55,488 nt of DNA, taken from NCBI GenBank assembly GCA_032718475.1, contig JAUCBJ010008866.1, positions 1 to 55,488 on the forward strand, in the 5' to 3' direction. The DNA is from Nemertoderma westbladi. Its lineage: Eukaryota; Animalia; Xenacoelomorpha. Both the position numbers and the translations under genes were made by a program. This document shows, in pieces, positions 1 to 40,114 of this stretch (the first letter of the stretch is position 1; every line of letters begins with the position of its first letter). The notes under the pieces were generated by a model, which ran no database searches, had not been told where the DNA came from, and saw only the letters and a program-made list of their open reading frames with translations.

Positions 1-2291
1 TATTTCACTATAAGATAGCATTTGTAGTTTAACTTTAACGTAAAAACTTTCGAAAATCCGACGTATTTTGATTGAGTTACAGTAATGTAATATGCCTATT
101 CATATTTGTACACATAAAACCCTTAGGTACTCTCGTGGCGTAGTGGTCAGATGGTTAAGGCGTTGGTTACATTACATAGGTTACGAGTTCGAATCCCGGT
201 CGGGAAATTTGTATTTTGGGGCCATTTATTTTCGTTTGGTGCTAATTGGTAGGCCAATGAGAAGCGTACAACGTAGCGAATGATGAGCCAGGCCAATCAT
301 AGGGCATAAATTATCTTATTGCTCAAATGTGAGGCAGTGGAAAATTCTGTTAGGATTCCATGTCCCAGATTAGTGTAAGGGCCGGACTGCGTTGAACGAT
401 GAGCTGGGCCAATCATAGGGCACGAAGCACTTTATTGCTCAATTGTGAAGCTGTGGAAAATTCTGTTTAGTTTCCATGTGCAATTTCTAGTATAAAAAGG
501 CCGGTTTGCCTTCGGTTATCCCCTTATATGTTACCTACTCTTACCACACCCCTTAACCCAGATTAGTATTAGTTAAATTGTTGATTAGTTTATTCGGTTT
601 CTTGTTGAAACTTCGTTTTGATAAATCCTTTGTAAAACTGTAAATATACTGCAAATTCCTGACATGTTTTCTTTTGGTCCAACTTTGGGACAGCCGAACA
701 TCAGGGAGATGGCAGCCTAGACCGTTAGGCCGTAAGCAACGCAAGGAAGGGATGTCCACAACACGCTAGCGCCCACATTGGATTGACCGCGCACCCCCTT
801 TGCCCCTTCGAAATGCTCAACTTGCTATGCAGCGCCCGCTTTGTGAGAAAGGTAAGACTTTGTTCGACGCCCTTGCCCGCCGTAAGACCTATAGATCAGG
901 GTAAGCGTGACACCGTACTGGACGCCGCAAATTTAGGATCAAATAATTATATCCAGACAAACCCCCCCCCCCCTTTGTCAAGTCCTACGAATCCCTGGGT
1001 TAACCTGTACTTCCTACAGGTGCGAACTATTGCCATTCGTCAGTACGCGAGTACATATTAGGTACGGACAGCATATGTTCCATAATTTAGTGAGTCGTAG
1101 CACTGACTGTTTGGTACCGGTTCGCTTTGTAGAACGTACATTAGTACCCCCCCCCCCCCCCCCCCCCCCCCTGTCTGGAGTTAGCTATTTGATCAGGCAA
1201 GGAGCATTTCTGCTACCGGCACACTGCTTGGCCTAGGGAGGTTTATTAATATCCTACCGCGCCTTGCCACGTACTGATAGGTATTGCTGCTAACTACCGC
1301 AGCAACAAAGTTCTAGAATTAAATTAGTATACCAGATCAGCTAACGTATGGTAGCGATTAACCCCTATTCTTATCTTACAACCAGAATCTGGTATTAGTG
1401 CCGATCACGGGTGTAGTTACTAACACTGTGGTTGCCCTTTGGGTTGTGGATAGGAAGGAGAGAGCTTTGACGTCATTCGTGAGTATAAAGTTCTACAAAA
1501 CGCGACTAGTTTATTTTAGTAGCTAGCGCACGGTATCATTTTAGTCAGAAAATCGCTAAAACCTAGTAAAAGGAATTACACGAAATTGTTTTATTTGTAA
1601 CACACCCACACACACACGCCCTAAAACATATTGCCCTTAAAGTTCTACTAGCTACAGCGCACTATACATTACTTTAGGTGGAAATTATCTGTATTTGTAA
1701 AATTAGGATCTGATTTAGTTGCGGCAATAAGGAGTATTTCACTTTCGTTATTAAACTGTTGATTTCTGTCCAGCAGTTATTGTTACATTTAGGCCTGACC
1801 CTTTAGACTGATTTCGTACAGGGGGATCAGTTATTGTTACATTTAGGCACGACCTTTAGGCTGATTTCGACAGGGATAATCAGCATTGTTACACTAGGTC
1901 TGTTAACCACCTAGCTCGTATATAAACCATATAAATCACACCGCGGCAAGTTACTGTATTTAGGACTGTCAGTGATAGTTAGGATTCGCTGCGCGGGGAT
2001 TGTTTTCCCGTGAGTTTGGTCTGTTACTGTAACTGTACATCTGCCTCACCGGTTAGAGGACAGGTATCCTTTTGTCTAGTACGTAGGCATTAGACCCGCT
2101 CACGTACATAGAATAGATACTAGGCTCTGTTCCTCGCCAGTAGTCGTTTGTGTACTGTATCTGTTTGTTTAGATATCCTGGACTGGGATTTGTTGTCAGA
2201 TACTGTACGAGCCCGTATACATTACTAGAGTCTCATAGTAAGATACATCGTTACTAGGATCTGGTAAGCGGTATACTACTGGACCCTTACA
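1..2291. mobile_element. Probable LTR-type element inserted in the intron of ZNF copy 1; extends past the left edge
   Basis: Reverse-complement homology to the copy-2 intron (27560-27609, aaatgcttt|acagg) stops at 2292. The inserted DNA ends in CCCTTACA (TGT start on the minus strand). It contains CCAAT boxes, a TATAAAA, and internal direct repeats (283-365/400-480; 1772-1890). No coding domain recognised. Confidence 0.4.
131..204 (+). other. tRNA-like / Pol III promoter relic (tRNA-derived SINE head or tRNA pseudogene)
   Basis: A-box-like TGGCGTAGTGG (136-146) and B-box GTTCGAATCC (187-196) at tRNA-like spacing; a full cloverleaf is not convincing. Confidence 0.45.
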
Positions 2292-2462
2292 AAAGCATTT
2301 AAAAATTTGTAGAAATATAGCATTTCTTGTACCATTGATATGAATAATATTCTACATAAATACTAAATAGGTGTATATATTTATATACTATTGTAATTTT
2401 TAACAATAGTATGCGGTCATCTTACATTTTTTAAAAACACCACAAAAATCTCACTTCAGCGC

Positions 2463-3044
2463 CAGGCCCGTAGCCAGTATAAGGCGAAGGTATTGTAAGA
2501 AATTTTTCTCCATTAGTATAATTTTACATTTTTACACAACCATTTTCTGGTTCCATGCGCGCCTTCTTTAAACATTAGCCTTGTAGTAATCAAACACCGG
2601 TACATATTACACTTATATTGTAAGTTACTTTCATTTTAATAAAACCTTCCGTAGGCCAATACGGTTACTACTACTACAGTCCAGTAGGGCCTACTCCACC
2701 CTTACAGTCATCGAACAATGGTCGTATAAGGTACGCAGCAAACTTCGCCCGCGTCCAATCTTCACCCGCAGCAATCTTCGCCCACTAAACAATGATTGTT
2801 TTGGTGAGAAAAAGCCGTCTCTGTAACCTGCTGCTTTCCTTCAATTTGTACTAACATCGTTTATTGTTTTGGTTAGAAAAAGCCTGATGGCGGACTCCAT
2901 GTAGTGTAGACCCTACTGTAGTTTTGCTTTATACCTACTGTATACAATTAAATCTATTATAAAATGTATCCAATAACATTTTTGCGCCTGCCTACCCTGA
3001 TATTCCCTCGCCTACCCAACTAAAAAATCCTGGCTACGGGCCTG
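2463..3044. mobile_element. hAT-like MITE in the copy-1 intron
   Basis: 15-bp TIR CAGGCCCGTAGCCAG / CTGGCTACGGGCCTG; imperfect ~8-bp TSD cttcagc(g)c / cttcagcc; absent at the corresponding copy-2 site (~27430). Confidence 0.7.
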
Positions 3045-3929
3045 CTTCAGCCCAACCACATATTAAACTGGGAAAGAAACAAATTTCATACATTTATAAA
3101 ATAGTTTCAAATATTCCCACTTCACTTCACCCCACCTCATGGGGTGAAGTGGGACAAAATAAAACAAAAAAAAAACAATATAGATTTTGGGAAACTGCAG
3201 TAAATTCAAGCCTAATATAATAATAATAATTTATTTATAACGCGCCTTTTAAGGGCAATAAATCAAGGCGCAGGTACGCGAACACAATTAGTTAATTACT
3301 ACATAATGACATAATATAATGTATTTGAGTGTCATATTTCTCATTACAAAACCTTGACTGTCAGTTATCTAGACATTTTAATAAAAATTGACTTTTGTAC
3401 AAAATTTTGATAAATATTTCCCACTTCACCCCAGTAGACGGTAATTAATACAAGACAATTAATGTTAATGTAGTTTTTTCGATTCGAAATTGTACATTAA
3501 TACATGTTAGGTTTGATCATGAAATCGACCAAATGTTGAGACTTTGGTAGAAAAGTTCAAGGGGTCTTAGAAAATATTGAAAATTTAGGCCTACTTACTT
3601 AACATACAGTATAGGCGTACAGGTACAGTAGTATCTACGGCTACCGGTGGTATACTCGGTACACGCAAACGGTTTTGTTTTCTTTCACTTTCAAATCTCA
3701 ATTATTATGAGAATAAACGTTTATTTACTCATAATAAAAAATGTACTAAATTTTAAAAATTTGTAAATTTAAAAATTAATTTAAATTTAAAATTTTAAAA
3801 AGAAAAACTTAATAGTCGGGGTGTCTGGAATAAGAGAATTGTGGGTGGATTTTTTTTTCAAAAAATAATAGCCGTGTCGCCCCGTCTATTCGGGACTCCT
3901 GAGTAATCGCAATAACTTGTGCGACGCAG

Positions 3930-5577
3930 AATGAATTCCCTTGTATTTGTATTTCTTCATCTGGATAATAGAGCCCAGCCATTTCTCAGACACAGAATGG
4001 AATCTCCTGTATTTGTATTTCTTCATCTGGATAATAGAGTCCAGCCATTTCTCTGACACAGAATGGAATTCCTTGTATTTGTATTTCTTCATCTGGATAA
4101 TAGAGTCCAGCCATTTCTCAGACACAGAATGGAATCCCTTGTATTTGTATTTCTTCATCTGGATAATAGAGTCCAGCCATTTCTCTGACACAGAATGGAA
4201 TCCCTTGTATTTGTATTTCTTCATCTGGATAATAGAGTCCAGCCATTTCTCTGACACAGAATGGAATCCCCTGTATTTGTATTTCTTCATCTGGATAATA
4301 GAGTCCAGCCATTTCTCTGACACAGAATGGAATCCCTTGTATTTGTATTTCTTCATCTGGATAATAGAGTCCAGCCATTTCTCTGACACAGAATGGAATC
4401 CCTTCTATTTGTATTTCTTCATCTGGATAATAGAGTCCAGCCATTTCTCTGACACAGAATGGAATCCCTTGTATTTGTATTTCTTCATCTGGATAATAGA
4501 GTCCAGCCATTTCTCTGACACAGAATGGAATCCCTTGTATTTGTATTTCTTCATCTGGATAATAGAGTGCAGCCATTTCACTGACACAGAATGGAATCCC
4601 TTGTATTTGTATTTGTTCATCTGGATAATAGAGTCCAGCCATTTCTCTGACACAGAATGAAATTCCTTGTATTTGTATTTCTTCATCTGGATAATAGAGT
4701 CCAGCCATTTCTCTGACACAGAATGGAATCCCTTGTATTTGTATTTCTTCATCTGGATAATAGAGTCCAGCTATTTCTCTGACACAGAATGGAATCCCTT
4801 GTATTTGTATTTCTTCATCTGGATAATAGAGTCCAGCCATTTCTCTGACATAGAATGGAATCCCTTGTATTTGTATTTCTTCATCTGGATAATAGAGTCC
4901 AGCCATTTCTCTGACACAGAATGGAATCCCTTGTATTTGTATTTCTTCATCTGGATAATAGAGTCCAGCTATTTCTCTGACACAGAATGGAATCCCTTGT
5001 ATTTGTATTTCTTCATCTGGATAATAGAGTCCAGCCATTTCTCTGACACAGAATGGAATCCCTTGTATTTGTATTTCTTCATCTGGATAATAGAGTCCAG
5101 CCATTTCTCTGACACAGAATGGAATCCCTTGTATTTGTATTTCTTCGTCTGGATAATAGAGTCCAGCCATTTCACTGACACAGAATGGAATCCCTTGTAT
5201 TTGTATTTCTTCATCTGGATAATAGAGTGCAGCCATTTCACTGACACAGAATGGAATCCCTTGTATTTGTATTTCTTCATCTGGATAATAGAGTCCAGCC
5301 ATTTCACTGACACAGAATGGAATCCCTTGTATTTGTATTTCTTCATCTGGATAATAGAGTCCAGCCATTTCTCTGACACAGAATGGAATCCCTTGTATTT
5401 GTATTTCTTCATATGGATAATAGAGTCCAGCCATTTCTCTGACACAGAATGGAATCCCTTGTATTTGTATTTCTTCATCTGGATAATAGAGTCCAGCCAT
5501 TTCTCTGACACAGAATGGAATCCCTTGTATTTGTATTTCTTCATTCTGAATAATAGAGTCCAGCCATTTCTCAGACA
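3930..5577 (-). repeat. 66-bp intronic minisatellite, about 25 units (ZNF copy 1)
   Basis: Near-identical head-to-tail units ccagccatttctctgacacagaatggaatcccttgtatttgtatttcttcatctggataatagagt; no spacers. Confidence 0.97.
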
Positions 5578-5659
5578 AAGCTAAAAATGGGATGTCTCTA
5601 TTCTGGAGTATTGTTTGCAATTCGCCGAGTTTGCGAAATAGGCTTCGTATATTATAATT
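5520..5659 (-). pseudogene. Fragment of LINE ORF2 apurinic-like endonuclease N-terminus (seed of the 66-bp repeat)
   Basis: Minus strand reads NYNIRSLFRKLGELQTILQNRDIPFLALSEKWLDSIIQNEEIQIQG. This fits the N-x-RSL..K..EL....D....SETWL....D.EI.I.GY pattern of CR1/L2-clade endonucleases. Confidence 0.8.
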
Positions 5660-5839
5660 GTTATTTGGTGAGAAAGGCTTCAGGCTAGATTGAATTTAAT
5701 TAAACCAGATAAAAACCTTAAAGAACAAAAACTAAATTCAGAACTATCATAACTGTCACTATAAATAAACAATTACTCTGACCAGATTGGGGGCAATACG
5801 GACTAAACGATGTTTACAATACAAATCATAGTAACTCAC

Positions 5840-6833
5840 CGATACTGGAAACTGTCGATTTAGAGGCCAACAGGAGGTTGTAGGTGTTGGGAAGGTTTAA
5901 GAAGTCGTCTCGAGACTGAGTAGTGAGGGTTGGTGAAGAGTTAGTGTCTGTTAGGGGACCATGAGCGGTGTTGGGAGACAGGGAGTTAGAGTCCGGGATG
6001 AGATTCTGCTGAGCTGAGTGGGTGGTCGAAGCATTAGTGTCTGTACTGTTTCCATATTCTACATCTATAGGGGAGAATAAATCGCCCAAGCCATCACCAA
6101 CCTCGTTTAGGTCGGGTTTATATTCCAGTTTGTCTTCCGTCTTTATGCGTAGGATTACCTGAACATCTGACTGGTCTGCTGATAGAGGTTGGGTAGAATA
6201 ATGGTTTAGGTTGGTTGTGGTTACTGCGGGGGTATAGGAGGATATGTTGTTATAAGGTAATAAAGTTGAACTGGCTGTATTATTACTTGATTCAGATTCA
6301 ATGAGGTTTGGTTTGGTGTATATCGGACTCAGTTTGGGATCCATTTGTCTCTGTTCTCCCTGTAGGTCTGTCTGGTGGAGATGTTGTAACCTCACCACAG
6401 GCTGCATAGAGGAGAGTTCGGTAGGTGGCGTGCGTTGATTCGAGTATCGAAATTGCGGATGCTTTCCTGTAGCAGGATAGTCATTGTAGAGGTACGTAGG
6501 TGTCGACGCCGATGTCGTTAATGGACCCTGTGGCATACTAGTCTCGCGGTACCCGGCAGTCCGGACAGTGGCCTGTGATTTGTTCGTGTTATCCGGGGTG
6601 GTGGCAGCGTTGCTAGACCCAGATGAGAGTGAACGCAGCAGCCACTCAGTAATATGACCTGCCGTACATTTATTAACAACATAATAGTCCAGAAAACTCG
6701 AGTTCGCGTCCAGGTACTCTTCGAGAAACGTCCTCACAAACGAATCATTTTTCGAACAGATGTTCGCGAACATAGATTTGGTAATTAGTAGGGCTCGATC
6801 GGAGCTCCGGCCTCCGGCTCCGGCTCCGGCCAT
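5840..6833 (-). CDS. Exon 1 of C2H2 ZNF paralogue copy 1; native start replaced by MITE sequence; finger exon not in window
   Basis: Clearly homologous to the ORFs at 20159 and 37708. GTGAGT donor at 5839-5834 in the same position. Residues upstream of LITKS come from the MITE starting at 6789. Functional status uncertain. Confidence 0.7.
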
Positions 6834-7601
6834 TTTGGCACCTCCGGCTCCTGCTCCGGTAAAAATATTGCCGGAGTTAATTTTTTAATAAAGTATTATA
6901 TTTCGTGAATATTCTAATCTGAACAATTATTTACACTATAAATAGCCTACTGTAGTACAGCTTCAATATCAAGCATATAATACTGCAGTATTTACCAGTA
7001 CTTAGTCAATGACTGTGGACTGACTGACTGTACTGCAGTACTGCTGTACTGGTACTGGCCAGCTGGCTGACTACTGGACTGTTACAGATAGGCCCTACTG
7101 TAAAAAATTTTTGTAAATGCTATGATAGTACACTCTACCACTGCAGCCCTTTACTGACTGTCATGCCAGCATAATGTACTGCAGTACTGGTACACGTACG
7201 GTACAGTGGTAGGCTACCTACAGTCAGACAGTACACACCTCTACCACAGTTAGACAGTTCGTGAGTTAGGTCTGTACGTACTGACGTACTGTAGGTAATT
7301 TTTAGCCGTCAGCGTCAGGCCGTCTGTCCGTGATAAATTAATTACTTAAATTTTAAATTGAAAATTCGTAAATCTATAAATTATGAAATTAATTAGACCT
7401 ACAGTACGTACAGCAGTATGATTGATTATGATGACAGTATGAGCGATTGGCGAACGATAACCATACTTTATTTTTTTTAAATAAATCATTAAATTTTTAA
7501 AATTTTTGAAAAACTCCGGCTCCTGCTCCGGCTCCGGCCAAATTGTCCAACTCCGGCTCCTGCTCCGGCTCCGGCCAAATCTCAACTCCGATCGAGCCCT
7601 A
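6789..7601. mobile_element. hAT-like MITE (family A, copy 1)
   Basis: 16-bp perfect TIR TAGGGCTCGATCGGAG / CTCCGATCGAGCCCTA; subterminal (CTCCGG)n motifs; four copies in the window. Confidence 0.85.
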
Positions 7602-7602
7602 G

Positions 7603-8422
7603 TAGGGCTCGATCGGAGCTCCGGCCTCCGGCTCCGGCTCCGGCCATTTTGGCACCTCCGGCTCCTGCTCCGGCTCCGGTAAAAATATTGCCGGAGTTAA
7701 TTTTTTAATAAAGTATTATATTTCGTGCATATTCTTTCTAATCTGAACAATTATTTACACTATAAGTACTGAAGTAAGTACTGTAGTACAGCTTCAATAT
7801 CAAGCATAATCTGATAATACCGGTTGCCGGTACTGCAGTATTTACTTAAAGTCAATGACTGACTGACTGTACTGCAGTACTGGTACTGGCCAGCTGGCTG
7901 ACTAGCAGACTATTACAGTATTACAGATAGGCCCTACTGTAAAAAATTGTAAATGCAGAAATGCTATGGTATGACAGGTTGAATGTACACTGTAGCTGTA
8001 CCACTGTAGCCATTTACTGCTGTCATGCCATACCAGCATACTGTACTGCAGTACTGGTACACGTACGATAGGGCGGGTAGGCTACCTACAGTACACACCT
8101 CTACCACAGTTAGTGAGTTAGGTACTGTAGGTAATTTTTAGCCGTCAGCGTCAGCATCAGGCCGTCTGTCCGTGATAAATTAATTACTTAAATTTTAAAT
8201 TGAAAATTCGTAAATCTATAAATTATGAAATTAATTAGACCTACAGTATGATTGATTTATGAGCGATTAGCGAACGATAACCATACTTTATTTTTTTTTA
8301 AATAAATAATTAAATTTTTAAAATTTTTTAAAAACTCCGGCTCCTGCTCCGGCTCCGGCCAAATTGTCCAACTCCGGCTCCTGCTCCGGCTCCGGCCAAA
8401 TCCCAACTCCGATCGAGCCCTA
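7603..8422. mobile_element. hAT-like MITE (family A, copy 2), tandem to copy 1
   Basis: Same TIRs and body as 6789-7601; separated from it by 1 bp. Confidence 0.85.
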
Positions 8423-8847: not shown

Positions 8848-10810
8848 CTGTATGTTTACAAAAAGGAAAATATTTTAATATGTTACTGAACTGAAAATAC
8901 GATGGGCAGAGAATATACGTAGTTGCACGGGGTATCTAAAACATTGAGTAAAAATGATTTGTCGTCGAGGATAGCCCCATGAGACTGCGTCTCGTTTCCA
9001 TGGGGGTCCTCGCTATGTGATGAAAATCTTATTGTTGTAATAAGTCCTTGAGTAAGATAAAAAATAAATTAATATAAGTAGTTAGTATTAGTATGTCTGT
9101 CTGTTTTTGACTGCTAATTAACATTTTAAAAATATGTTTTTTCAGATAAAAATAAATAATAAATACAGTAGATCTCAGTAGATACAGTAGATGATAAATT
9201 AAAGAGGAATATCACACAAATACAAATATAATACATACATACAATAATAATACATACATGAATATAATACATACAATACAAATATAATAATTATTTAGGC
9301 CTACACTAGTATCAAACAGTAGAAACCGAGCATTTAGAGAGAAATAAAAATATTGAAATGGCAGTGGCAGTGGCATAAAAAATAAAAAAAATGAAATAAA
9401 ATACAAACAGCTACATAGAAAGAGTAATATATTATGGTATTGAGGTTTTTTAGAACAACACAATAAAAATGTATTTACTTACTGCAGTATTTCTACGTAT
9501 CTACGATTGATATTGCTGTATTGAACGTATCTACACTGCAGTATTTACTTAAAGTCAATGACTGACTGACTGTACTGCAGTACTGGTACTGGCCAGTTCT
9601 GCAGTTGGCTGACTAGCAGACTGTTACAGATAGGCCCTACTTTAAAAAATTGTAAATGCTATGGATTGTACACTGTCAGACTGTACCACTCAGCCACTGC
9701 AGCCAATTACTGCTGTCATGCCAGCATACTGTACTGCAGTTGCAGTACTGGTACACCTACGGTAGGCTACCTACAGTACACACCTCTACCACAGTTAGAC
9801 AGTTCGTGAGCAAGGCCTACTAGAGAAACAGGCCTGGAATCCGAGATCAAGCCAATTCTATTGAAGGCCTAATAATCCAATGTGTGTGTGTGTGTGTCCG
9901 GCATCCGGAGCTCTACAGCTCTACAGCCCGCATTTCTAAACCAATCTGATCGAGTAAGGCAGCAGTAAGGTATCAAACGAAGCGGAATTGTCATACGATG
10001 CTCACCGCCCAAAAATATTTTGGTATTCTAGAACATTATTTAGCTATTAATAGCTGTTATTGTAAATTGCAATTTTTCATGTGTAAACCATAGGCTATTA
10101 TATACTACTACTTCTACTTGGGACTACGTTAGGAGGACAAGCTGGCCGCCGCTAGCGCTATTCTAGAACATAGATAAATAAAGGTAATAGGATTTATTAA
10201 TAATATTAATATAATAATAATAAACTGGAATATAATTTTTTTGATGAAATGGATGAACCCACTGCAAAAATCGGTCGGTCTGCATGTTAGTAATTGATGT
10301 CCTGTTGTAATTTCACAATTAAGTAATATAATAATAATATGTACTGCTTAAGAATTACACTCAAGAGTTAAAAAAATATTAAATATAGTTATAGTATAGG
10401 TTTATAGCATCCACTTCATTGTCGGTCAACGTGATGTCAACACACGAGGAACACTTTTGCTTCCCAAGTTCACTTGAACATTCAACCTCCAGTTCTGTGT
10501 ATAGTTTCGCTCGATCAATGCGGTGGGTAAAGAAAACTTCGGCTACGCTTATATGGTAATTTCCCCCAGCAGATTGGCGAAAGTGCCCAAATTAATTAAA
10601 ATTATAATTAATTAAAATAAATTTAAATAAATTAATTTATTAATTAAATTAATTAAATAAATTAATTTTATCGTTGGCAAGGAAATCCGACATCTCGTCA
10701 ATATCCGGAAAGAACTTGCGCGCGTCGTTGAGCGTGGAGGGGCTGGAGGCGTTGGGATGGAGAGCAGAGGAACATTTGGGAATACCGACGGCGGTTCCAC
10801 CGGCACTGGG

Positions 10811-13441: not shown

Positions 13442-16000
13442 CTGGGTATCTCCCGGAATGATGTTTCGTTGTCATCTCTTCGGGCCAGTGCTTCCGACAA
13501 ACTCCCATGAAACTCGTAACCTTGCACGGATCTACGATATTCGGAAGTTGCCGCAACCACGTTCAGACGTTTGCAATTCCACAGGATCTTTCGGAAACGC
13601 GTAGACCGTAATCGGTGAGGAATTCTCCTCCCCGTCGTCCATACCGGTCAGTTTATCCTTCGCGTTCGCATAACCAGTTCTGCAACCGCCGACGGAACAC
13701 TTCCTTCCCATCGAGTTAACGGTCGTACAGTCGTATCAGGTTGTCACTTTGGTAGTTTATTCGGGTAGACACTCCAGCACTCGTGTATTCAGGTAAACAC
13801 TCGAGCAGTCAGGTAGGAAGAGTAAACGATAACATAATTCAGTGCAGTAGGTAGTTCAAGATTTGTAAACTATAGGCCTACAGTATACCGGTATCAGAAT
13901 TCTACATTCTAGGCCTTCAATAATGAAGGCCTGTAGGCTGGCTGCCAGCGCCAGGCCTGTTTCTCTAGTAGGCCTTGTTCGTGACCGTGAGTTAGGTACT
14001 GTCAGACTGTAGGTAATTTTTAGCGCCAGCGTCAGGCCGTCGCCGTCAGCGTCAGGCCGTCTGTCCGTGATAAATTAATTACTTTAATTTTAAATTGAAA
14101 ATTCGTAAATCTATAAATTATGAAATTAATTAGACCTACAGCATGATTGATTATGAGCGATTGGCGAACGATAACCATACTTTAATTTTTTTTAAATAAA
14201 TAATTAAATTTTTAAAATTTTTGAAAAACTCTGGCTCCTGCTCCGGCTCCGGCCAAATTGTCCAACTCCAGCTCCGGCTCCGGCCAAATCCCAACTCCGA
14301 TCGAGCCCTAGTGGCGCGCATTGAGGATCCTGGCGCGGAAATGGATGTCATGTATAGCAGTATAGCTGTATAGTAGCAAAATGCACTGGCATGGCAACAT
14401 ATTCAGCCACTCTACTTGAAATTAACGGTCTGCCAGTAGAGCCTATTTTTAAAAAGAGTTAGGCCTAGGCCTTAAAAATTTTCGCTCGCTTCGCTCGCGT
14501 TTGTTTATTATACCTGCCTACTGTACGCTCTACTCTTACACTGTTCAGCTGTTACAGTCTTATTCATCATTCTAATAACTATAATAGGTGCATTTGATTA
14601 CAGTGATATTTTATTACAGTATTTGTTTATTAACCTATAGAAGTAGTTCCGTGCCTTGAACTGTTTTGCACTCCGACATTATGGACAAACCGACAGATTG
14701 GGCATTGAAGGTACTGTACCGTATCCAATCCACGTTACGCGTTAATCATCATGGCCAAGTAGGCCAAATGTTTAATGTTTAATAGTTTAGGGTAAGAGGA
14801 AGATAAACTTATAGATACCCATCACCGACATAATTTAAGGCAATCTTTATATGGAACCAGAACTGAAAGTAAATTAATATGTTGTATGTAATACCGGTAA
14901 TAGGATAGGCCTAATAAAATATAGTAAGAAGTTGAAGAAGAGTATAAAAAAAACCTGATCCGACACCAACGAAATACATGTACTCAATCCAGCGTAGGAC
15001 TGTTAAAAACCGGCGATGCACAAACAACAAACTAATATAGGTTAAAACAAAGTAGTGTAGAATCGGTAGAACTATTGGAATTTGAATAAGATATGTATGG
15101 ATTATTAAAAACTGACTGAATTAAAATTTAAATAAAATATGTATGAATTACTAAAAACTGACGGGGTAGGTTAGTGTGGCGCAAACAACGTACGTAACGT
15201 ACCATAATTTTAAAAAAGTATTTAAAAATATTAACAATAGATTGGTAAATAAGTACTGTTCTACAGGCTTAAAAACATGTCAATAAACAATTTTTTAATG
15301 TCTTTCAAAATATGTGTTGTTTGAAAGGTTTTTCAATTGTTCACACCAATGTAGCCTAAAACCACGATTCAGCAGATTTTCCGAGCTCGCTACACTCCGA
15401 TTTAATTCATAATCACATCTGTAGGTAAAAAATAGTCGGTTGACCAAAAAATTTAAAAATTTTCTTGCTCGCTACGCTCGCAATTTAATCACATCTGTAT
15501 TTAAAAACAGTCGGCTGACCTACTACAGTCCCAATCCCAATAAACATTAACTTGGTCATTTTGGTGGCCAAAACGACCAAAATGGCCAAATATAAATTGC
15601 GGCATTCATGAAAGGAACTTCTGAGGCAAGTTGGCTTGTCAATCACAGCCAGTGAATAGAGGCTGAGTGTAAGTAAAGCCCAGGATGTTGGCAGATAGAA
15701 AACCGCACTGGAGGTAGACCATTGCCATTGGTTAGCTGTATGCTATTGTAATACAAAGAGAGCGGCAGGATAAAGAGAAATGCCGACCTCGCTAATAATG
15801 GGCTGGTCCCACAGGTCACTTTAAGGTAGGTGGTACAGTAGGTACTACAGTTTACATGTTCAAGGGCGCCAGTCCCTAGTCGCTAGCCCATAGTCTGTCA
15901 TGGAGTTCCTGTAGTAGTTTTAGACGCTTTCACTCAGTATCCTAGTGTCCAGGAAGTTGGGAGTTGAGTGTGGGTGGCCCCCACGCAACACCGCAGTGTC

Positions 16001-17499: not shown

Positions 17500-18275
17500 T
17501 AACCTGCTCCTTTCCCTGATTTGGTAAAGTGACTGTTTATTGTTTTGGTTAGAAAATCCGGCCTTAACCTGCTCCTTTCCCTCAATTAGTTAAGTGATCG
17601 TTTATTGTTTTGGTTAGAAAATCCCGCCTCTGTAACCTGCTCCTTTCCCTCAATTGGTAATGTTATCGTTTATTGTTTTGGTTAGAAAATTCCGCCTCTG
17701 TAACCTGCTCCTCTCTCTCAATTGGTAATGTTATCGTTTATTGTTTGGTTATAAAATCCCGTCTCTGTAACCTGCTCCTTTCCCTCAATTAGTTAAATGA
17801 TCGTTTATTGTTTTGGTTAGAAAATCCCGCCTCTGTAACCTGCCCCCTTCCCTCAATTAGTTAAATGATCGTTTATTGTTTTGGTTAGAAAATCCCGCCT
17901 CTGTAACCTGCTCCTTTCCCTGAATTGGTAAAGTGACCGTTTATTGTTTTGGTTAGAAAGGCTCGCCTCTGTAACCTGCCCATTTCCCTCAATTAGTTAA
18001 ATGATCGTTTATTGTTTTGGTTAGAATATCCCGCCTCTGTAACCTGCTCCTTTCCCTCAATTAGTTAAGTGATCGTTTATTGTTTTGGTTAGAAAATTCC
18101 GCCTCTGTAACCTGCTCCTTTCCCTCAATTAGTTAAGTGATCATTTATTGTTTTGGTTAGAAAATCCCGTCTCTGTAACCTGCTCCTTTCCCTGATTTGG
18201 TAAAGTCACTGTTTATTGTTTTGGTTAGAAAACTCGGCCTTAACCTGCTCCTTTCCATCAATTGGTAATTGTTTT
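17500..18275. repeat. 68-bp minisatellite, about 11 units
   Basis: Unit aacctgctcctttccctcaattagttaagtgatcgtttattgttttggttagaaaatcccgcctctgt; period measured 17634 to 17702. Confidence 0.95.
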
Positions 18276-18506: not shown

Positions 18507-19186
18507 TAGGGCTCGATCGGAGCTCCGGCCTCTAGCTCCGGCTCCGGCCATTTTGGCACCACCAGCTCCTGCTCCGGCTCCGGTAAAAATATTGCCGGAG
18601 TTAATTTTTTAATAAAGTATTATATTTCGTGCATATTCTAATCGGAACAATTATTTACACTATAAATACTGTAGTACAGCTTCAATATCAAGCACAATAC
18701 TGCAGTATTTACTTAAAGTCAATGACTGACTGACCGTTGACTGTACTGCAGTACTGGTACTGGCCAGCTGGCTGACTAGCAGACTGTTACAGATAGGCCC
18801 TACTGTAAAAAATTTTAAATGCTATGATTGTACACTGTACCACTGCAGCCATTTACTGCTGTCATGCCAGCATACTGTACTGCAGTACTGGTACACGTAC
18901 GGTAGGCTACCTACAGTACACAACACACCTCCTACCACAATTAGACAGTTAGGTACTGTAGGTAATTTTTAGCCGTCAGCGTCAGGCCGTCTGTCCGTGA
19001 TAAATTAATTACTTAAATTTTAAATTGAAAATTCGTAAATCGATAAATTGAAATTAATTAGAAATTAATGATTGATTATGAGCGATTGGCGAACGATAAC
19101 CATACTTTATTTATTTTATAATAAATAATTAAATTTTTAAAATTTTCGAAAAACTCCGGCTCCTGCTCCGGCTCCGGCCAAATTGT
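18507..19186. mobile_element. hAT-like MITE family A copy 4 (right TIR lost)
   Basis: Starts TAGGGCTCGATCGGAG; body matches 6789-7601 up to ccggccaaattgt. Confidence 0.8.
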
Positions 19187-19212
19187 ACATACATACATTG
19201 TTAATACATACA

Positions 19213-20158: not shown

Positions 20159-21140
20159 ATGGAACGGTTTACTTGTGAGTCGGGCAATGCACTGCTAATT
20201 ACCAAATCTATATTCGCGAACATCTGTTCAGAAAATGATTCGTTTGTGCGGACGTTTCTCGAAGAATACCTGGACGCGAACTTAAGTTTTCTAGACTATT
20301 ATGTTGTTAATAAATGTACGGCAGCTCATATTAGCGAATGGCTACTGCGTTCACTCTCTACTGGGTCTAACACCTCCGCCACCACCTCGGATAATACGAC
20401 CCAATCACCGGCCACTGTCCCGACTCCCGGGTACCGCGAGACCAGTATGCCGCAGTGTCCATTGACGACATCGGCGTTGAAACCTACTGACCACCACAAT
20501 TACAATCCTGCGACAGGAAAGCATCCGCAATCTCGATACTCGAATCAACGCACGCCACCTACCGAGCCCTCCTCTATGCAGCCTGTGGTGAGGTTACAAC
20601 ATCTCAACCAGACAGACCTACCGGGAGAACAAAGACAAATGTATCCCAAACTGAGTCCGATAGACACCAAACCAAACCTCATTGAATCTGAATCGAGTAA
20701 TAATACAGCCAGTTCAACTTTATTACTGTATAACAACATATCCTCCTATACCCCCGCAGTTACCACAACCAACTCAAACCACTATTCTACCCAGCCTCTA
20801 TCAGCGGACCAGTCAGATGTTCCGGTAATCCTACGCATTAAGACGGAAGACGAACTCGAATATAAACCCGACCTAAATGAGGTTGGTGATGGCTTGGGTG
20901 ATTTGTTCTCCCCTGTAGCATATGGAAACAGTACAGACACTAATGCTTCGACCACCCACTCAGCTCAGCAGAATCTCATCCCGGACTCTAACTCCCTGTC
21001 CCCACACACCGCTCATGGTCCCCTAACAGACACTAGCTCCTCACCAACCCTCACTACTCAGTCTCTATACGACTTCAACTTAAACCTTCCCAACACCTAC
21101 AACCTCCTGTTGGCCCCTAAATCGACAGTTTTCGGTATCG
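20159..21140 (+). CDS. Exon 1 of C2H2 ZNF copy 2 (N-terminal domain plus S/T/P-rich region)
   Basis: ATG in acaATGG Kozak context. The ORF runs to ATC G|GTGAGT (donor 21141, phase 1) and joins 27859 in frame, giving about 547 aa. Confidence 0.85.
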
Positions 21141-21328
21141 GTGAGTTACTATGATTTGTATAGTAAACATCCTTTAGTCCGAATTGCAGCCGAACTGATC
21201 AGAGTAATTGTTCATTTAATTTATAGTGACAGTTATGATACTTCTGAGTTAAGTTTTTGATTTTTAAGATTTTTATCTGGTTTAATTAAATTCAATCTAT
21301 TCCAATCCATTCCTTTCTCACCAAAATA

Positions 21329-21410
21329 TATAATATATGAAGCCTATTTTCAAAACACGTCGAATTGCAAATAATATTCCAGAATAGAGACATCCAATTT
21401 TTTAGCTTTG
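21329..21410 (+). pseudogene. Decayed LINE endonuclease fragment leading into the array (copy 2)
   Basis: YNI*SLFSKHVELQIIFQNRDIQF; homologous to 5580-5659 but with a stop and a frameshift. Confidence 0.7.
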
Positions 21411-24400
21411 TCAGAGAAATGGCTGGACTCTATTATCCAGATGAAGAAATAAAATACAAGGGATTCCATTCTGTGTAAGAGAAATGGCTGGATTCTATTA
21501 TCCAGATGAAGAAATACAAATACAAGGGATTCCATTCTGTGTCAGAGAAATGGCTGGACTCTATTATCCATATGAAGAATTACAAATACAAAGGATTCCA
21601 TTCTGTGTCAGAGAAATGGCTGGATTCTATTACCCAGCCAGATGAAGAAATACAAATACAAGGGATTCCATTCTGTGTCAGAGAAATGGCTGGATTCTAT
21701 TATCCAGATGAAGAAATACAAATACAAGGGATTCCATTCTGTGTCAGAGAAATGGCTGGACTCTATTATCCAGATTAAGAAATACAAATACAAGGTATTC
21801 CATTCTGTGTCAAAGAAATGGCTGGATTCTATTTATTATCCAGATGAAGAAATACAAATACAAGGGATTCCATTTGGTGTCAGAGAAATGGCTGGACTCT
21901 ATTATCCAGGTGAAGAAATATAAATACAAGGGATTCCATTCTGTGTCAGAGAAATGGATGAATTCTATTATCCAGATGAAGAAATACAAATACAAGTGAT
22001 TCCATTCTGTGTCAGAGAAATGGCTGGACTCTATTATCCAGATGAAGATATACAAATACTAGGGATTCCATTCTGTGTCAGAGAAATGGCTGGATTCTAT
22101 TAGTATTATCCAGATGAAGAAATAAAATTACAAGGGATTCCATTCTGTGTCAGAGAAATGGCTGGATTCTATTAGTATTATCCAGATGAAGAAATATAAA
22201 TACAAGGGATTCCATTCTGTGTCAGAGAAATGGCTGGACTCTATTATCCAGATGAAGATATACAAATACTAGGGATTCCATTCTGTGTCAGAGAAATGGC
22301 TGGATTCTATTAGTATTATCCAGATGAAGAAATAAAATTACAAGGGATTCCATTCTGTGTCAGAGAAATGGGTGGATTCTATTAGTATTATCCAGATGAA
22401 GAAATATAAATACAAGGGATTCCATTCTGTGTCAGAGAAATGGATGAATTCTATTATCCAGATGAAGAAATACAAATACAAGTGATTCCATTCTGTGTCA
22501 GAGAAATGGCTGGACTCTATTATCCAGATGAAGATATACAAATACAAGGGATTCCATTCTGTGTCAGAGAAATGGATGAATTCTATTATCCAGATGAAGA
22601 AATACAAATACAAGTGATTCCATTCTGTGTCAGAGAAATGGCTGGACTCTATTATCCAGATGAAGAAATACAAATACAAGGGATTCCATTCTGTGTCAGA
22701 GAAATGGATGAATTCTATTATCCAGATGAAGAAATACAAATACAAGTGATTCCATTCTGTGTCAGAGAAATGGATGAATTCTATTATCCAGATGAAGAAA
22801 TACAAATACAAGTGATTCCATTCTGTGTCAGAGAAATGGCTGGACTCTATTATCCAGATGAAGATATACAAATACTAGGGATTCCATTCTGTGTCAGAGA
22901 AATGGCTGGATTCTATTAGTATTATCCAGATGAAGAAATAAAATTACAAGGGATTCCATTCTGTGTCAGAGAAATGGCTGGACTCTATTATCCAGATGAA
23001 GAAATACAAATACAAGGGATTCCATTCTGTGTCAGAGAAATGGCTGGACTCTATTATCCAGATGAAGAAATACAAATACAAGCGATTCCATTCTGTGTCA
23101 GAGTAATGGCTGGACTCTATTAGTATTATCCAGATGAAGAAATACAAATATAAGGGATTCCATTCTGTGTCAGAGAAATGGCTGGACTCTATTATCCAGA
23201 TGAAGAAATAAAAATACAAGGGATTCCATTATGTGTCAGAGAAATGGCTGGATTCTATTATCCAGATGAAGAAATACAAATACAAGGGATTCCATTCTGT
23301 GTCAGAGAAATGGCTGGACTCTATTATCCAGATGAAGAAATACAAATACAAGGGATTCCATTCTGTGTCAGAGAAATGGCTGGTCTCTATTATCCAGATG
23401 AAGAAATACAAATACAAGCGATTCCATTCTGTGTCAGAGAAATGGCTGGTCTCTATTATCCAGATGAAGAAATAAAAATACAAGGGATTCCATTATGTGT
23501 CAGAGAAATGGCTGGATTCTATTATCCAGATGAAGAAATACAAATACAAGGGATTCCATTCTGTGTCAGAGAAATGGCTGGACTCTATTATCCAGATGAA
23601 GAAATACAAATACAAGGGATTCCATTCTGTGTCAGAGAAATAGCTGGACTCTATTAGTATTATCCAGATGAAGAAATACAAATATAAGGGATTCCATTCT
23701 GTGTCAGAGAAATGGCTGGACTCTATTATCCAGATGAAGAAATAAAAATACAAGGGATTCCATTATGTGTCAGAGAAATGGCTGGATTCTATTATCCAGA
23801 TGAAGAAATACAAATACAAGGGATTCCATTCTGTGTCAGAGAAATGGCTGGACTCTATTATCCAGATGAAGAAATACAAATACAAGGGATTCCATTCTGT
23901 GTCAGAGAAATAGCTGGACTCTATTATCCAGATGAAGAAATACAAATACAAGGGATTCCATTCTGTGTCAGAGAAATGGCTGGACTCTATTATCCAGATG
24001 AAGAAATACAAATACAAGGGATTCCATTCTGTGTCAGAGAAATGGCTGGTCTCTATTATCCAGATGAAGAAATACAAATACAAGCGATTCCATTCTGTGT
24101 CAGAGAAATGGCTGGTCTCTAGAGTCGAAACAGAGACCTGGTTTTCTTAATACCGGTGAACCAGAGACCTACCCGGAGAATTATTTTAAAAAATACCAGA
24201 GCCAGAGATCAGAGACTTTGCTTATTTTTGTACTTACAATTTGATTACTCCCCTATAGCACAAACAGGTATATACGGACTGATAACTATTTTTCTATGGT
24301 TCAATTACAGTAAATCCAACCCATTTCAACCCTTACCCATTGTAAGAAAATAAGCGCACGTACAGTTTGGGGGGCTTAATTAATATTAATTTGGTTATTT

Positions 24401-25475
24401 GTTTATTAATTCGTTCTTATTTTGTTATTGTTAATAATATGTTACATTAATTTGTTTTCCGCCATAGGTATCGGTACTTTGTTAATTAAAGGCAATTATT
24501 TTACAATTGTTCAAATCATAAACATTTCAATGTACTATGAATACTTAGTGCTCTAATTATAGTATAGTACTCTACTCGCCCCATTTACAAGCCTCGTTAC
24601 GCTCGTTCTCTCCATTTGGTCGTCATATTATCTATCCTATAACAAATTGAATGGAGAACAGCCCTTTCTTTCACTTTTAAACATTATGGGTGCTCAAATT
24701 AAGCACCTTTATCCTTAAGTAAGAACAATCTTTGGTGCTAATTTAAATTAAAATTAAACGCACCTTAAATTAATTAAATAGAAGATTATCGGTACATTTA
24801 TTAGAAATATAAATAGTGTAAAAGTGAAAATATATTTGTGTTGATGTGGTGAATGTAAAATAGTTAATAATTAAAGAAATTATTAATTGTAAAAAATTTG
24901 TGAAAAATAATCTTCATTTCACATTTGTGTTGTACAGAATCTATTTTTAAATATCTATTTCTAATTTGTCAAATCACTGATCTCTGGGTAAAATGTCTGT
25001 TTTCAATACCCGGGAACCAGAGACCTATCCGGAGACCAAAAAATAGCCCGGAGAATCCAGAGATCAGTTACAAGTCTCTGTTTGAACTCTACTGGACTCT
25101 GTTATCCAGATGAAGAAATACAAAAATACAAGGGATTCCATTATGTGTCAGAGAAATGGCTGGACTCTATTATCCAGATGAAGAAATACAAATACAAGGG
25201 ATTCCATTCTGTATCAGAGAAATGGCTGGACTCTATTATCCAGATGAAGAAATACAAATACAAGGGATTCCATTCTGTGTCAGAGAAATGGCTGGATTCT
25301 ATCATCCAGATGAAGAAATACAAATACAAGGGATTCCATTCTGTGTCAGAGAAATGGCTGGACTCTATTATCCAGATGAAGAAATACAAATACAAGGGAT
25401 TCCATTCTGTGTCAGAGAAATGGCTGGACTCTATTATCCAGATGAAGAAATACAAATACAAGGGAATTCATTCTG
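21408..25475 (+). repeat. 66-bp intronic minisatellite, about 46 units (ZNF copy 2), interrupted by a MITE at 24120-25091
   Basis: Same unit as 3930-5577 in reverse complement; carries variant units and +6-bp units. Confidence 0.97.
24120..25091. mobile_element. hAT-like MITE inserted in the 66-bp array
   Basis: TIR TAGAGTCGAAACAGAGAC / GTCTCTGTTTGAACTCTA; 8-bp TSD ctggtctc / ctggactc. Confidence 0.8.
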
Positions 25476-25806
25476 CGTCGCACAAGTTATTGTGATTACA
25501 TATCTGAATGGTTCTCTTATAAATAGGTCCTAACTATTGCGTCTATCACTTTAAAATATTCCGTTTTTCCGAGACACTCCATAGTCACATTAATCAGTGC
25601 TGCAATATTTTATAAGACCCCTTGAACTTTTCTACCAAAGTCTCAACATTTGGTCGATTTCATGATCAAACCTTACATGTATTATAATGTACAATGTCGA
25701 ATCGAAAAAACTACATTAACATTAATTGTCTTGTATTAATTACCGTCTACTGGGGTGAAGTGGGAAATATTTATAAAAATTTTGTACAAAATTCCATTTT
25801 ACTTAA

Positions 25807-27858: not shown

Positions 27859-28520
27859 GCGACCAATCACAACCATCACCTGATGATTCGTACATGCTCG
27901 CTTCCGACGATGACGTAACACCCGGAAGTATGAATAATCCCTTCCACCAACCTGGTCCCTCTGGGATTCAACCCCAGGATATTGTGAAAAGGAGCCGCTC
28001 CAATGAGAAGCCGCTCAGCTGTGATACTTGTGATAAAGCGTTCGCATATAACAGCGACCTAATTAGACACCAACGGATCCACACCGGCGAGCGTCCATAC
28101 CAATGCGGCATCTGTAACAAACGTTTCTCTCTACTATGCAACCTAACCTCGCACAAGCGAAGCCACAGTGGGGAGAAACCATATAACTGCAATGAGTGCC
28201 AGAAACGTTTCTCTCGACTCGATAGCCTAACCTCGCACAAGCGGACGCATTCCGGAGAGCGTCCGTACGTGTGCGACACGTGCGGGAAGGGATTTACAGA
28301 GAGCGGCAATCTAACGTCCCACAAAAGAATTCACACGAAAGATCGACCGTACGTGTGCGAGACGTGCGGGAAGGAATTTACGGAGAGCAGCAATCTAACG
28401 CGCCACAAGAGATCACATACAGGGGAACGACCGTTTAGCTGCGATACATGCGGGAAATGTTTCTCCCACCGACATCATGTAACGCAACACAAATGTATCC
28501 GCAGTGGGGAGACTCGGTAA
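27859..28520 (+). CDS. Exon 2 of ZNF copy 2: six tandem C2H2 fingers (last one atypical, H-x-C)
   Basis: Acceptor ttctctAG at 27858. gc-gac-caa... is in frame with the ORF at 27894. CxxC..F.....L..H...H units with TGERPY/SGEKPY linkers. Confidence 0.92.
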
Positions 28521-28744
28521 CTGTAATGTTTGTAAGAAACGTTTCTCAACTTTCATGTATATTGGTAGACCCAATTGCTCCCTGGTTGCGGTTTAAACTA
28601 GTAAACTATATATGACGTTAGTTTTAGATTGAACTGCTATATGTCAGTCAGTACTACAACTCTTGTTATAATGATTAATAAGGTTGTCTAGGGACTGGCC
28701 TAGCGGCCCGATAAGGAGCCGATATTGTATTTCATAAAAACTGT

Positions 28745-29330: not shown

Positions 29331-29801
29331 TTTTATCAGCCAGCACTACCCATCCCATACTAATACTGTAATTTGCACATTTTGAGCATTTATAGAAAAA
29401 ATTTGGAACATGATAGTAAACAAAGTTAACAAACAATGAAAATCTGTTCCTAATAATTATTTAATTAGTTAGGCCAACATATATCCTGTCTAAATCAAAA
29501 TAATAATACCGAAATAAACCGTGATGCATTTTACTCCACCGTCAATTAATTTAAACAATGAAAAGGAACAAGACAATCATTTTTAATCTTCTTCTATAAT
29601 ATTTAACGTCCACATCCGCTGTACAACGAATAGGTCATTAAATTACTTTATTAGAATAAACCAAATTAAATATAAAGTTTAAAATTGAAAAAAAAATCAC
29701 TCTACGGCATAAAATTAATGTTTCAACCAAAATCACGATTGTATAACATCCCGCATAGCAGCATATCATATTCTATTCAATCATAACATAATCAATAACT
29801 A

Positions 29802-35100: not shown

Positions 35101-35119
35101 AAACCAAACTAAACTCCCA

Positions 35120-35243
35120 AACAAAACTCCAGAATAGAGACATCCCATTTTTAGCTTTGTCAGAGAAATGGCTGGACTCTATTATCCAGAGGAAGAAATA
35201 CAAGGGAATTCATTCTGCGTCGCACAAGTTATTGCGATTACTC
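35120..35243 (+). repeat. Collapsed single-unit copy of the LINE-fragment/66-bp locus at the gag breakpoint
   Basis: Left array flank (ctccagaatagagacatccc), one unit, then right flank (tcattctgcgtcgcacaagttattgcgattactc). Confidence 0.9.
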
Positions 35244-37707: not shown

Positions 37708-38710
37708 ATGGAACGGTTTACTTGTGAGTCGGGCAACGCACTGCTAATTACCAAATCTATATTCGCGAACATCTGTTCGGAAAATGGTCCGTTTGTGCGG
37801 ACGTTTCTCGAAGAATACCTGGACGCGAACTCGAGTTTTCTGGACTATTATGTCGTTAATAAATGTACGGCAGGTCATATTACCGAGTGGCTGCTGCGTT
37901 CACTCTCCTCTGGGTCTAACAACGCCGCCACCACCTCGGGTTTGTCTCACAACACGACCCAATCACCGGCCACTGTCCCGACTGCCGGGTACCACGAGAC
38001 CAGTATGCCGCAGTGTCCATTGACGACTTCGACGTCGACACCTGCGTACCACCACAATTACAATCCTGCGACAGGAAAGCATCCGCAATCTCCATACTCG
38101 AATCAACCCACGCCACCTACCGAACCCTCCTCTATGCAGCCTGTGGTGAGGTTACAACATCTCAACCAGACAGACCTACCGGGAGAACAAAGACAAGTGG
38201 ATCCCAAACTGTGTCCGATAGACATCAAACCAAACCTCATTGAATCTGAATCGAGTAATAATACAGCCAGTTCAAATTTATTGTCTTATATCAACATATC
38301 CTCCTATACCGGTACCCCCGCAGTTACCACAACCAACTCAAACTATTATTCTACCCAACCTCTATCAGCAGACCAGTCAGATGTTCCGGTAATCCTACGC
38401 ATTAAGACGGAAGACGAACTGGAATATAAACCCGACCTAAACGAGGTTGGTGATGGCTTGGGCGATTTATTCTCCCCTATAGATGAAGCATATGGAAATA
38501 GTACAGACACTAATGCTTCGACCACCCACTCAGCTCAGCAGAATCTCCTCCCGGACTCTAACTCCCTGTCTCACAACACCGCTCATGGTCCCCTAACAGA
38601 CACTAACTCCTCACCAACCCTCACTACTCAGTCTCTAGACGACTTCAACTTAAACCTTCCCAACACCTACAACCTCCTGTTGGCCTCTAAATCGACAGTT
38701 TCCGGTATCG
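37708..38710 (+). CDS. Exon 1 of C2H2 ZNF copy 3 (inside the BEL element)
   Basis: MERFTCESG start homologous to 20159; donor G|GTGAGT at 38711; spliced product about 498 aa with no lesion seen. Confidence 0.85.
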
Positions 38711-38949
38711 GTGAGTTACTATGATTTGTATTGTAAACATCGTTTAGTCCGTATTGCCCCCAAACTGGTCAGAGTAATTGTTTATTTATAGTGACAGTTA
38801 TGATAGTTCTGAATTTAGTTTTTGTTTTTTAGGGTTTTTATCTGGTTTAATTAAATTCAATCTAGCCTGAAGCCTTTCTCACCAAATAACAAATATAATA
38901 TACGAAGCCTATTTACGAAGCGATTACTTAGGACTCCTGAGTAATCGCA

Positions 38950-39154
38950 ATAACTTGTGCGACGCAGAATGAATTCCCTTATATTTGTATTTCTTCATCT
39001 GGGTAATAGAGTCCAGCCATTTCTCTGACACAGAATGGAATCCCTTGTGTATTTATTCATCTGGATAATAGAGTCCAGCCATTTCTCTGACACAGAATGG
39101 AATCCCTTGTATTTGTATTTCTTCATCTGGATAACAGAGTCCAGCCATTTCTCT
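38950..39154 (-). repeat. Residual, inverted 66-bp array (about 3 units) in the copy-3 intron
   Basis: Units read antisense to the gene, unlike copies 1 and 2. Confidence 0.9.
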
Positions 39155-39620: not shown

Positions 39621-40114
39621 GCGACCAATCTCAACCATTTCCTGATGACTCAGACATGCTCGTTTCCGACGATGACGTAACACCCGGAAATATGAATAAT
39701 CCCTTCGACCAACCTGATCCCTCTGGGATTCAACCCCAGGATATTATGAAAAGAAGCCGCACCAATAAGAAGCCGCTCAGCTGTGGTACTTGTGATAAAG
39801 CGTTCGCAAAGAACAGCAACCTAATTATACACCAACGGATCCACACCGGCGAGCGTCCTTACCAATGTGGCATCTGTAACAAACGATTCTCTCAACTAGG
39901 CCACCTAACCCCGCACAAACGGACGCATTCCGGAGAACGTCCGTTCGTGTGCGACACGTGCGGGAGAGGATTTACAGAGAGCTGCAATCTAAAAACTCAC
40001 AAGAGATTACATACAGGGGAACGACCGTTTAGCTGCGATACATGCGGGAAATGTTTCACCCACCGACATCAAGTAAAGCGCCACAAATGTATCCGCAGTG
40101 GGGAGACTCGGTAA
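39621..40114 (+). CDS. Exon 2 of ZNF copy 3: four C2H2 fingers
   Basis: Acceptor tttctctAG at 39620, in frame with 39656. 56 aa (2 x 28) shorter than copy 2. AATAAA at 40258. Confidence 0.92.

Follow-up and report, generated by a model that had tools for sequence, protein, structure and literature searches.

A 66-bp minisatellite derived from a LINE endonuclease fragment in the introns of a zinc-finger gene family of Nemertoderma westbladi

Where does a short tandem repeat in the introns of zinc-finger (ZNF) genes come from, how did it reach several genes, and is it put to any use there? These questions are raised by a 66-bp sequence repeated in a contig of Nemertoderma westbladi, which we analysed over a stretch of 55,488 nt (the window). 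Our answer, held with a probability of about 0.78, is that the repeat is a minisatellite that grew from a decayed LINE endonuclease fragment in a ZNF intron, arose once and spread passively with gene duplication. Minisatellites derived from transposable elements (TEs) are a known kind of repeat; the present case, a LINE-endonuclease-derived one in ZNF introns, is real and well supported.

The arrays and their host genes

Tandem Repeats Finder, run on the window, returned a period-66 array at 3923-5577 (25.1 copies, 97% matches), and all 80 matches to a single-unit BLAST query of the 55,488-nt window fell within array loci or at 35161-35203. After cutting, the loci yielded 25 units (copy 1), 41+5 plus a partial unit (copy 2), 3 units (copy 3) and 1 unit (the 35-kb copy). 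An earlier note on this DNA had described a 66-bp unit present about 25 times, about 46 times, about three times inverted and once singly, and these results bear out every locus and count. Its name for the repeat, a satellite, does not hold: very long arrays are absent, the largest being 3.1 kb, and because there are 1-46 units per locus, arranged head-to-tail, the repeat is a minisatellite and not a classical satellite.

The copy 1 array (3923..5577, minus strand) consists of 25 units of 66 bp, the first of them 67 bp, with a mean difference of 1.4% from the consensus and 8/23 units identical. Its terminal unit is followed by a tail (3894..3922, minus strand), which is common to all four loci, and then by a repeat end that is also present in sequencing runs X2 and X3. 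The copy 2 array lies on the plus strand in two parts. The first (~21409-24121) holds 40.4 copies, that is 40 units and a partial one, and the second (25092..25507) about 6 units (5.8 copies to 25479), the terminal unit and the tail; 6/30 full-length units are identical, 10 more have indels, all of these in the first part, and the units differ by 2.6% from the consensus. Between the parts lies an insertion of 972 bp (24120..25091) with 21-nt terminal inverted repeats and an 8-bp flanking duplication matching at 7/8 positions, which we take to be hAT-like.

At copy 3, the array (38961-39154, minus strand; 3.0 copies) is inverted relative to its gene and belongs to a segment (38920..39154, minus strand) made up of a fold-back junction with a 13-bp stem at 38920-38948, the inverted tail and three units; the middle of the LINE piece described below is missing. 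The single-unit copy (35121..35243, plus strand), which retains the tail and some of the LINE piece, has one unit of 60 bp, 6 bp having been deleted. It is not intronic but lies at a rearrangement break that interrupts a BEL/Pao gag frame. The terminal unit is a distinct variant common to copies 1, 2 and 3 and the 35-kb copy, and in the three arrays for which a consensus was computed (copy 1 and both parts of copy 2) that consensus is identical.

Folding gave the unit no RNA structure (z 0.06 and 0.08), and the idea that it acts as a hairpin RNA was rejected. The inversion junction of copy 3 (38920-38948) does form a 13-bp perfect-or-wobble hairpin (z -4.6), and the inverted units there would have the opposite sense to those of copies 1 and 2. 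Read in the frame that gives the endonuclease in the first unit, the copy 1 array is also free of stops for 525 codons (4118-5695, minus strand); as a gene this frame was rejected, being a by-product of the 22-codon unit with Pfam matches that are repeat artefacts. Rfam had no match in the window at its gathering score, including at a short tRNA-like stretch seen by eye at ~130-200, perhaps a SINE head, with what we take to be a B-box-like motif.

Three paralogous exons A are present in the window, each ending at a GT donor. Exon A of copy 2 (20159..21140, plus strand; donor GT at 21141) is followed by a finger exon at 27859..28520 (plus strand) encoding 6 C2H2 fingers, and that of copy 3 (37708..38710, plus strand; donor GT at 38711) by a finger exon at 39621..40114 (plus strand) encoding 4. 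In-phase AG acceptors stand at 27859 and 39621, and the spliced frames are open over 547 and 498 aa, respectively. Copy 1 has an N-terminal, non-finger exon A (5840..6833, minus strand) in which paralog homology starts at 6794; its first ten codons have been replaced and it adjoins a long inverted repeat. No C2H2 or linker motif was found in 1-3900, and homology to the copy 2 intron ends at 2292, so that copy 1 would count as a ZNF gene by paralogy only; it may be a damaged gene. The earlier note held that the repeat is confined to, or derived from, ZNF introns. All 80 BLAST matches do lie at the loci it named, but the 35-kb copy is not intronic and copy 1 belongs to the family by paralogy.

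The long inverted repeat beside copy 1 (6786-8422; ~800-bp arms, 80% alike) supplies a new in-frame ATG at the start of exon A, and relatives of it occur at 18507-19189, 9535-9818 and 13987-14313.

In run X1, which had been labelled as DNA by guess and which we read as RNA from its behaviour, the depth over exon A is in the thousands and drops to 17 or 0 just past the donor. A contig from this run departs from the reference at the exon A donor, and its next nine letters are those with which the finger exon opens; it differs at 6 of 63 letters and comes from another family member. Splicing from exon A to the finger exon is thus observed for a member of the family, whilst for copies 2 and 3 it is presumed, since the contig is not theirs. 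In the same run, the repeat unit has a depth of 106 and the LINE piece is uncovered, although contig depth cannot rank the parts of a gene.

The host family is large. In runs X2-X4 (DNA-like, with at most 0.22 of the words), 261-487 contigs per run fall on exon A and the 5' intron. Exon A gave no Pfam match above cut-off, no recognised repressor domain and no homologue in the protein searches, and its pN/pS is 0.39-0.61; it may be a ZNF-associated N-terminal domain of a large family that has not been described before. Along its ~330 aa, constraint is stronger in the first 70 codons than in the rest (pN/pS 0.23 vs 0.54, copies 2 and 3). Between the fingers of copies 2 and 3, the one pair available, 11/16 DNA-contact positions differ as against 7-9/64 other positions (p under 1e-4), and judged by its sequences the family looks like a rapidly diversifying one. 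In zebrafish FiNZ-ZNFs, too, changes are concentrated at DNA-contact residues (PMC10547256). Our family resembles these and the KRAB-ZNFs in being expanded, in pairing an N-terminal exon with a finger exon and in its contact-residue changes; it differs in that exon A is without Pfam domain or homologue and in having only 4-6 fingers.

Origin of the unit in a LINE endonuclease

Read in the sense of the gene, the copy 1 intron carries an un-amplified 5' part of a LINE endonuclease (5578..5665, minus strand), from motif I to just before motif II, which leads into the array. Copy 2 has the corresponding piece at 21311..21408 (plus strand) with frameshifts and a stop. The peptide quoted in the earlier note does form an unbroken reading, on the minus strand from 5656 to 5522. 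This continuity rests on the 67-bp first unit, which is absent from copy 2 and the 35-kb copy, and may therefore be a change private to copy 1. Immediately before the LINE piece, ~40 bp at 5681..5726 are shared with a dispersed, higher-copy repeat, as seen from a depth peak and from an identical loose end at 5726 in runs X1, X2 and X4; the higher-copy repeat is likely a DNA-transposon end. A loose end at 5689 was considered as the mark of a LINE-free paralog and judged unsafe for this, because it may belong to the same dispersed repeat and the motif was not found intact in the window.

Direct searches with peptides of 48-58 aa missed the endonuclease: Pfam returned 0 families, NCBIfam 0 matches, a PDB sequence search one chance match (E 0.7) and a word-indexed protein search 9 candidates, none at E <=10, and the sole match in a search of 1.84 billion proteins was a repetitive protein. 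In the ESM Atlas, an Exo_endo_phos cluster (0.92; 9/30 matches) took rank 11, with the family assigned to 51% of the cluster, below unnamed and RecU rows, a weak lead only. We therefore built a reference set and a profile. A degenerate pattern made from known endonuclease motifs picked out 119 metagenome loci, of which 59 were kept as having an open frame of at least 30 aa before and at least 120 aa after the motif, GDxN present and no redundancy; neither of two pattern scans over viral contigs turned up a LINE (58 chance loci in one, 0 in the other). All six references that were checked carry both Exo_endo_phos and RVT_1.

With the 59-reference profile, the segment 5656-5522 came first of the 3315 stop-free segments of the window (28.5 bits, E 1.8e-7); the next segment scored 7.4, the reversed peptide 5.1 and ten shuffles 4.2-10.6. 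An HMM check of the peptide, as the earlier note had suggested, was thus negative with the broad Pfam model and positive with a LINE ORF2 profile. Since the references had been chosen by motif, we ran tests for circularity. A profile of the upstream part only was marginal (11.7 bits vs 6.6-11.0 in shuffles). The intron peptide kept its first place (16.8 bits, E 6.5e-4) when the profile was limited to the 30 references that resemble it least. Masked at the motif residues, it scored 12.8 against a null maximum of 4.4, with 0/200 shuffles reaching it, and shuffles that keep the motif reached 5.3 against 35.2 for the peptide itself. Single references align to it ungapped with 16-17 identities over 44-46 residues. 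The spacing of 27 aa between motifs I and II, which the pattern does not fix, is the commonest among the references (24/59).

Could the likeness be due to chance, or to the way in which the references were selected? The database misses, the motif pattern behind the reference set and the marginal upstream-only score all lean that way. The results with the least similar references, the masked peptide and the motif-keeping shuffles, the long ungapped alignments and the Exo_endo_phos and RVT_1 domains of the checked references make it hardly credible. The unit is well supported as an amplified motif-II-to-G segment of a LINE apurinic-type endonuclease.

In a frameshift-aware scan, where the window background peaked at 22.4-22.5, copy 1 reached 52.0 and copy 2 reached 30.7. 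The unit maps to columns 35-53 of the endonuclease profile, the ETWL-to-G stretch, with one 1-bp loss, and stands in register after the unique piece; scored alone it reaches ~21-25, close to the window background of 22. Within the matched columns 9-53, motif I (N-x-x-S) and the motif II glutamate are present, and the T of ETW is a K here. After motif II, the G is present and D-R and GGGV are absent. The earlier note had derived the unit from the segment running from SETWL to GY. This stands up to the profile tests with their controls once the frameshifts are allowed for, except at its far end: 'YSILRR' is plausible, but four residues past a frameshift score 6.5 bits (as in 0.19% of window 12-mers), the gain in score is not significant and the alignment stops short of it. 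The source LINE may be of the CR1/L2 clade, a label suggested by its motifs.

The match ends at column 53 of 223, and in six frames of the window there are no later endonuclease motifs, reverse transcriptase or 3' end; the piece is neither an intact nor a typical 5'-truncated LINE copy. A candidate second endonuclease fragment just 3' of the array was rejected, for although its 17.3 bits beat 60/60 local shuffles, 10/171 background peaks of the window are higher.

Birth and spread of the array

The most probable history begins with a LINE ORF2 of which ~180 bp, from its 5' end, still lie in the intron in sense orientation, the remainder of the element presumably having been lost. After 1-bp losses, a 66-bp piece would have been duplicated between short similar flanks, by slippage or unequal crossover; the 5' junction and the terminal end are alike at 5/7 letters, and the internal junction is their hybrid. 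Amplification probably preceded the gene duplications, since either the 5' junction or the terminal unit is common to all loci, which points to a single origin. Thereafter the arrays have grown, shrunk, become inverted and taken up insertions, as their present states record. The intron is spliced out in the family member described above and is expected to be so in copies 2 and 3; we therefore predict that the array neither codes for protein nor has a regulatory task of its own.

Neutral slippage, which the earlier note had named as its null model, fits best. Copy number (1, 3, 25, 46), orientation and integrity change freely whilst copies 2 and 3 have kept open spliced frames, and a single origin and the microhomology at the junction belong to the same picture. 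Confinement of the repeat to these loci follows from descent from one origin. As the same pattern is expected when an array that arose once is copied along with its gene, confinement cannot discriminate in favour of a function in ZNF introns.

Other tandem arrays in the window show that such amplification is common here. An unrelated 68-bp array lies at 17500-18268 (11.4 copies), and its source piece is found also at 2795-2880, within an element of the copy 1 intron (2463-3044) that is bounded by inverted 18-nt ends. The copy 2 intron holds at 26067-27154 two inverted arrays of a 152-bp unit, forming a long fold-back.

Two observations sit less easily with neutrality. The array consensus is identical despite a divergence of 10.7% in the 5' intron and of 10-15% at synonymous sites of exon A; had the arrays been homogenised independently, the absence of any fixed consensus difference would have a chance of ~0.04-0.18, a mild hint of either constraint or exchange between loci. 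The unit and the array end also recur in other samples. In X2 and X3 the array end is identical to that of copy 1.

The genome-wide distribution was estimated from contig depths alone. As summed contig depth is no copy number, the following ratios are rough: in X2-X4 the unit has ~7-46 times the depth of the LINE piece, and exon A ~1-6 times. As a rough reading, these depths agree with arrays of the sizes seen here, carried by part of the family, and call for no arrays elsewhere; the exon A ratio suggests that much of the family is likely without the piece. In X2 a single 189-bp contig (depth 424) covers the LINE piece almost wholly and extends from the unit into the ZNF intron, and a free parent LINE at >=80% likeness was not found among the matches listed (24/57 loose ends and 32/240 pieces).

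Tandem repeats with a monomer that is or contains a piece of LINE ORF2 have been described in the chicken HinfI repeat (from CR1) and in PROsat and Pvc 20 (from L1 ORF2) (PMC9659126). Here, by contrast, 22 codons of the 5' endonuclease motif region make up the entire monomer, and the arrays are short (1-46 units) and intronic, with the source flanks still attached. Closer in kind are the minisatellites derived from Alu, B1, MaLR and Ogre elements, discussed with the short-flanking-repeat model of Haber and Louis (PMC6947457). As in that account, the monomer comes from a TE, there are fewer than 100 units, and a first duplication between short similar flanks would be followed by expansion through slippage, conversion or unequal crossover; the differences are that the flanks match here at 5/7 letters only, that the source is a LINE coding segment and that dispersal was by duplication of the host gene and not by transposition. 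LINE-ORF2-derived tandem repeats and TE-derived minisatellites are also documented in PMC10218199. Among the papers listed in a search of the open-access literature there was no report of LINE-derived intronic minisatellites in invertebrate ZNF genes. The locus offers a clear natural record of the birth of a minisatellite from a LINE coding segment, with un-amplified flanks, junction microhomology and four derived states side by side; the record is useful for repeat biology, if not surprising.

Exchange between paralogs and possible uses of the array

The paralogs are mosaic. In the 5' intron, copy 2 differs from copies 1 and 3 at 27/253 and 19/196 positions (~10%), and 3' of the array at 24/614 (3.9%) and 8/354 (2.3%); the contrast between flanks is significant for each (Fisher p 3.5e-4 and 2.6e-4, respectively). 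Between copies 1 and 2, the unit-to-unit difference (4.1%) is matched by that of the 3' intron flank (24/614 = 3.9%). Within the copy 2 array, variation declines from 5' to 3' (rho -0.39, p 0.012, with units that are not independent). Copy 2 therefore switches at or in the array, within an interval of 4 kb. Copies 1 and 3 switch inside exon A, where there is no repeat (51/600 vs 14/549 differences, p 1e-5). Exchange of this kind between paralogs explains the shared consensus without selection, and it is likely what maintains one consensus in the neutral history set out above.

Since one of the switches lies at or in the array, the array may itself serve as a recombination platform, promoting crossovers or conversions between paralogs that swap the effector and DNA-binding halves of the gene and would hasten the diversification of the family, as a side effect or possibly under selection. 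A long homogeneous array between the N-terminal exon and the finger exon would suit that role. The switch of copy 2 from ~10% to 2-4% across it (p ~3e-4 against each paralog) and the gradient in unit variation agree with it, and two further rearrangement breaks, the copy 3 inversion and the 35-kb copy, lie at the element. Hybrid genes of the KIR cluster, in a comparable way, have breakpoints in intronic repeats (PMC2816608). The likeness extends to mosaic paralogs and a breakpoint at an intronic TE-derived repeat, but the KIR breakpoints are placed within 44-93 bp in Alu and MLT1 (PMC2816608), as against an interval of 4 kb here and a second switch that is exonic. The array and its insertion make up about half of the copy 2 gene, so that one break there is expected from target size and is not evidence of a hot spot. 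With three paralogs examined and the switch of copies 1 and 3 falling where there is no repeat, we regard a platform as unlikely.

The earlier note had gone further and proposed a TE-sensing circuit, in which the array would act as a multimerised site bound by the fingers of the family itself (for autoregulation or as a decoy), as a source of small RNAs or as a piRNA target, coupling ZNF expression to the activity of the parent LINE. Our analysis brought no positive evidence for this, and we consider it very improbable. A function linked to TEs would not be absurd for a large family with fast-changing contact residues, given that KZNFs often target satellites and other KZNFs (PMC10547256); in copies 1 and 2 the piece runs in the sense of the gene, the orientation expected if antisense LINE piRNAs were to target it, and the loci share a consensus. 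Yet copies 2 and 3 carry the same repeat with different residues at most of their contact positions, which argues against both binding one unchanged 66-mer. The array is moreover reversed in copy 3 and split in copy 2, the unit lacks a hairpin, and the rough excess of exon A over the LINE piece in depth and, weakly, the absence of a free parent LINE among the matches listed count against it as well.

A parallel is offered by element R of Drosophila phf7, likewise a locus-specific intronic tandem repeat that had been proposed to nucleate silencing (PMC9822104). In the account given there it differs in not being derived from a TE, and its deletion showed it not to be required; the dispensability of this comparable repeat for H3K9me3 (PMC9822104) is a further point against a silencing circuit. 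Among the open-access papers listed, judged by title and the start of the abstract, none describes a LINE or piRNA circuit in ZNF introns.

A broader form of these ideas has the LINE fragment co-opted between effector and finger exons as a point at which paralogs swap their N-terminal and DNA-binding halves, possibly also as a self-binding or piRNA site that ties their output to LINE activity; we think it improbable. If the array were a recombination hot spot or a regulatory target, a TE remnant would be tied to the diversification or control of a putative TE-policing ZNF family. Passive descent within the duplicating gene remains our preferred history, and the host family, with its exon A without known relatives and its fast-changing contact residues, may merit more attention than the repeat.

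The BEL/Pao LTR element of the window spans 30480-54696 and includes DUF1759, Peptidase_A17, DUF5641 and an integrase, with a pol region broken by stops. Its gag frame is split between 33871-35112 and ~42850 onward, with ~45 bp repeated at the break; the 7.7 kb within the split gag hold the single-unit copy, ZNF copy 3 and a 96% duplicate of 28340-31292. Between the BEL/Pao pol and a repeat at 53896-54696 lies a further open frame of 525 aa (52034-53611, plus strand) with a weak zinc-knuckle match (E 0.011).
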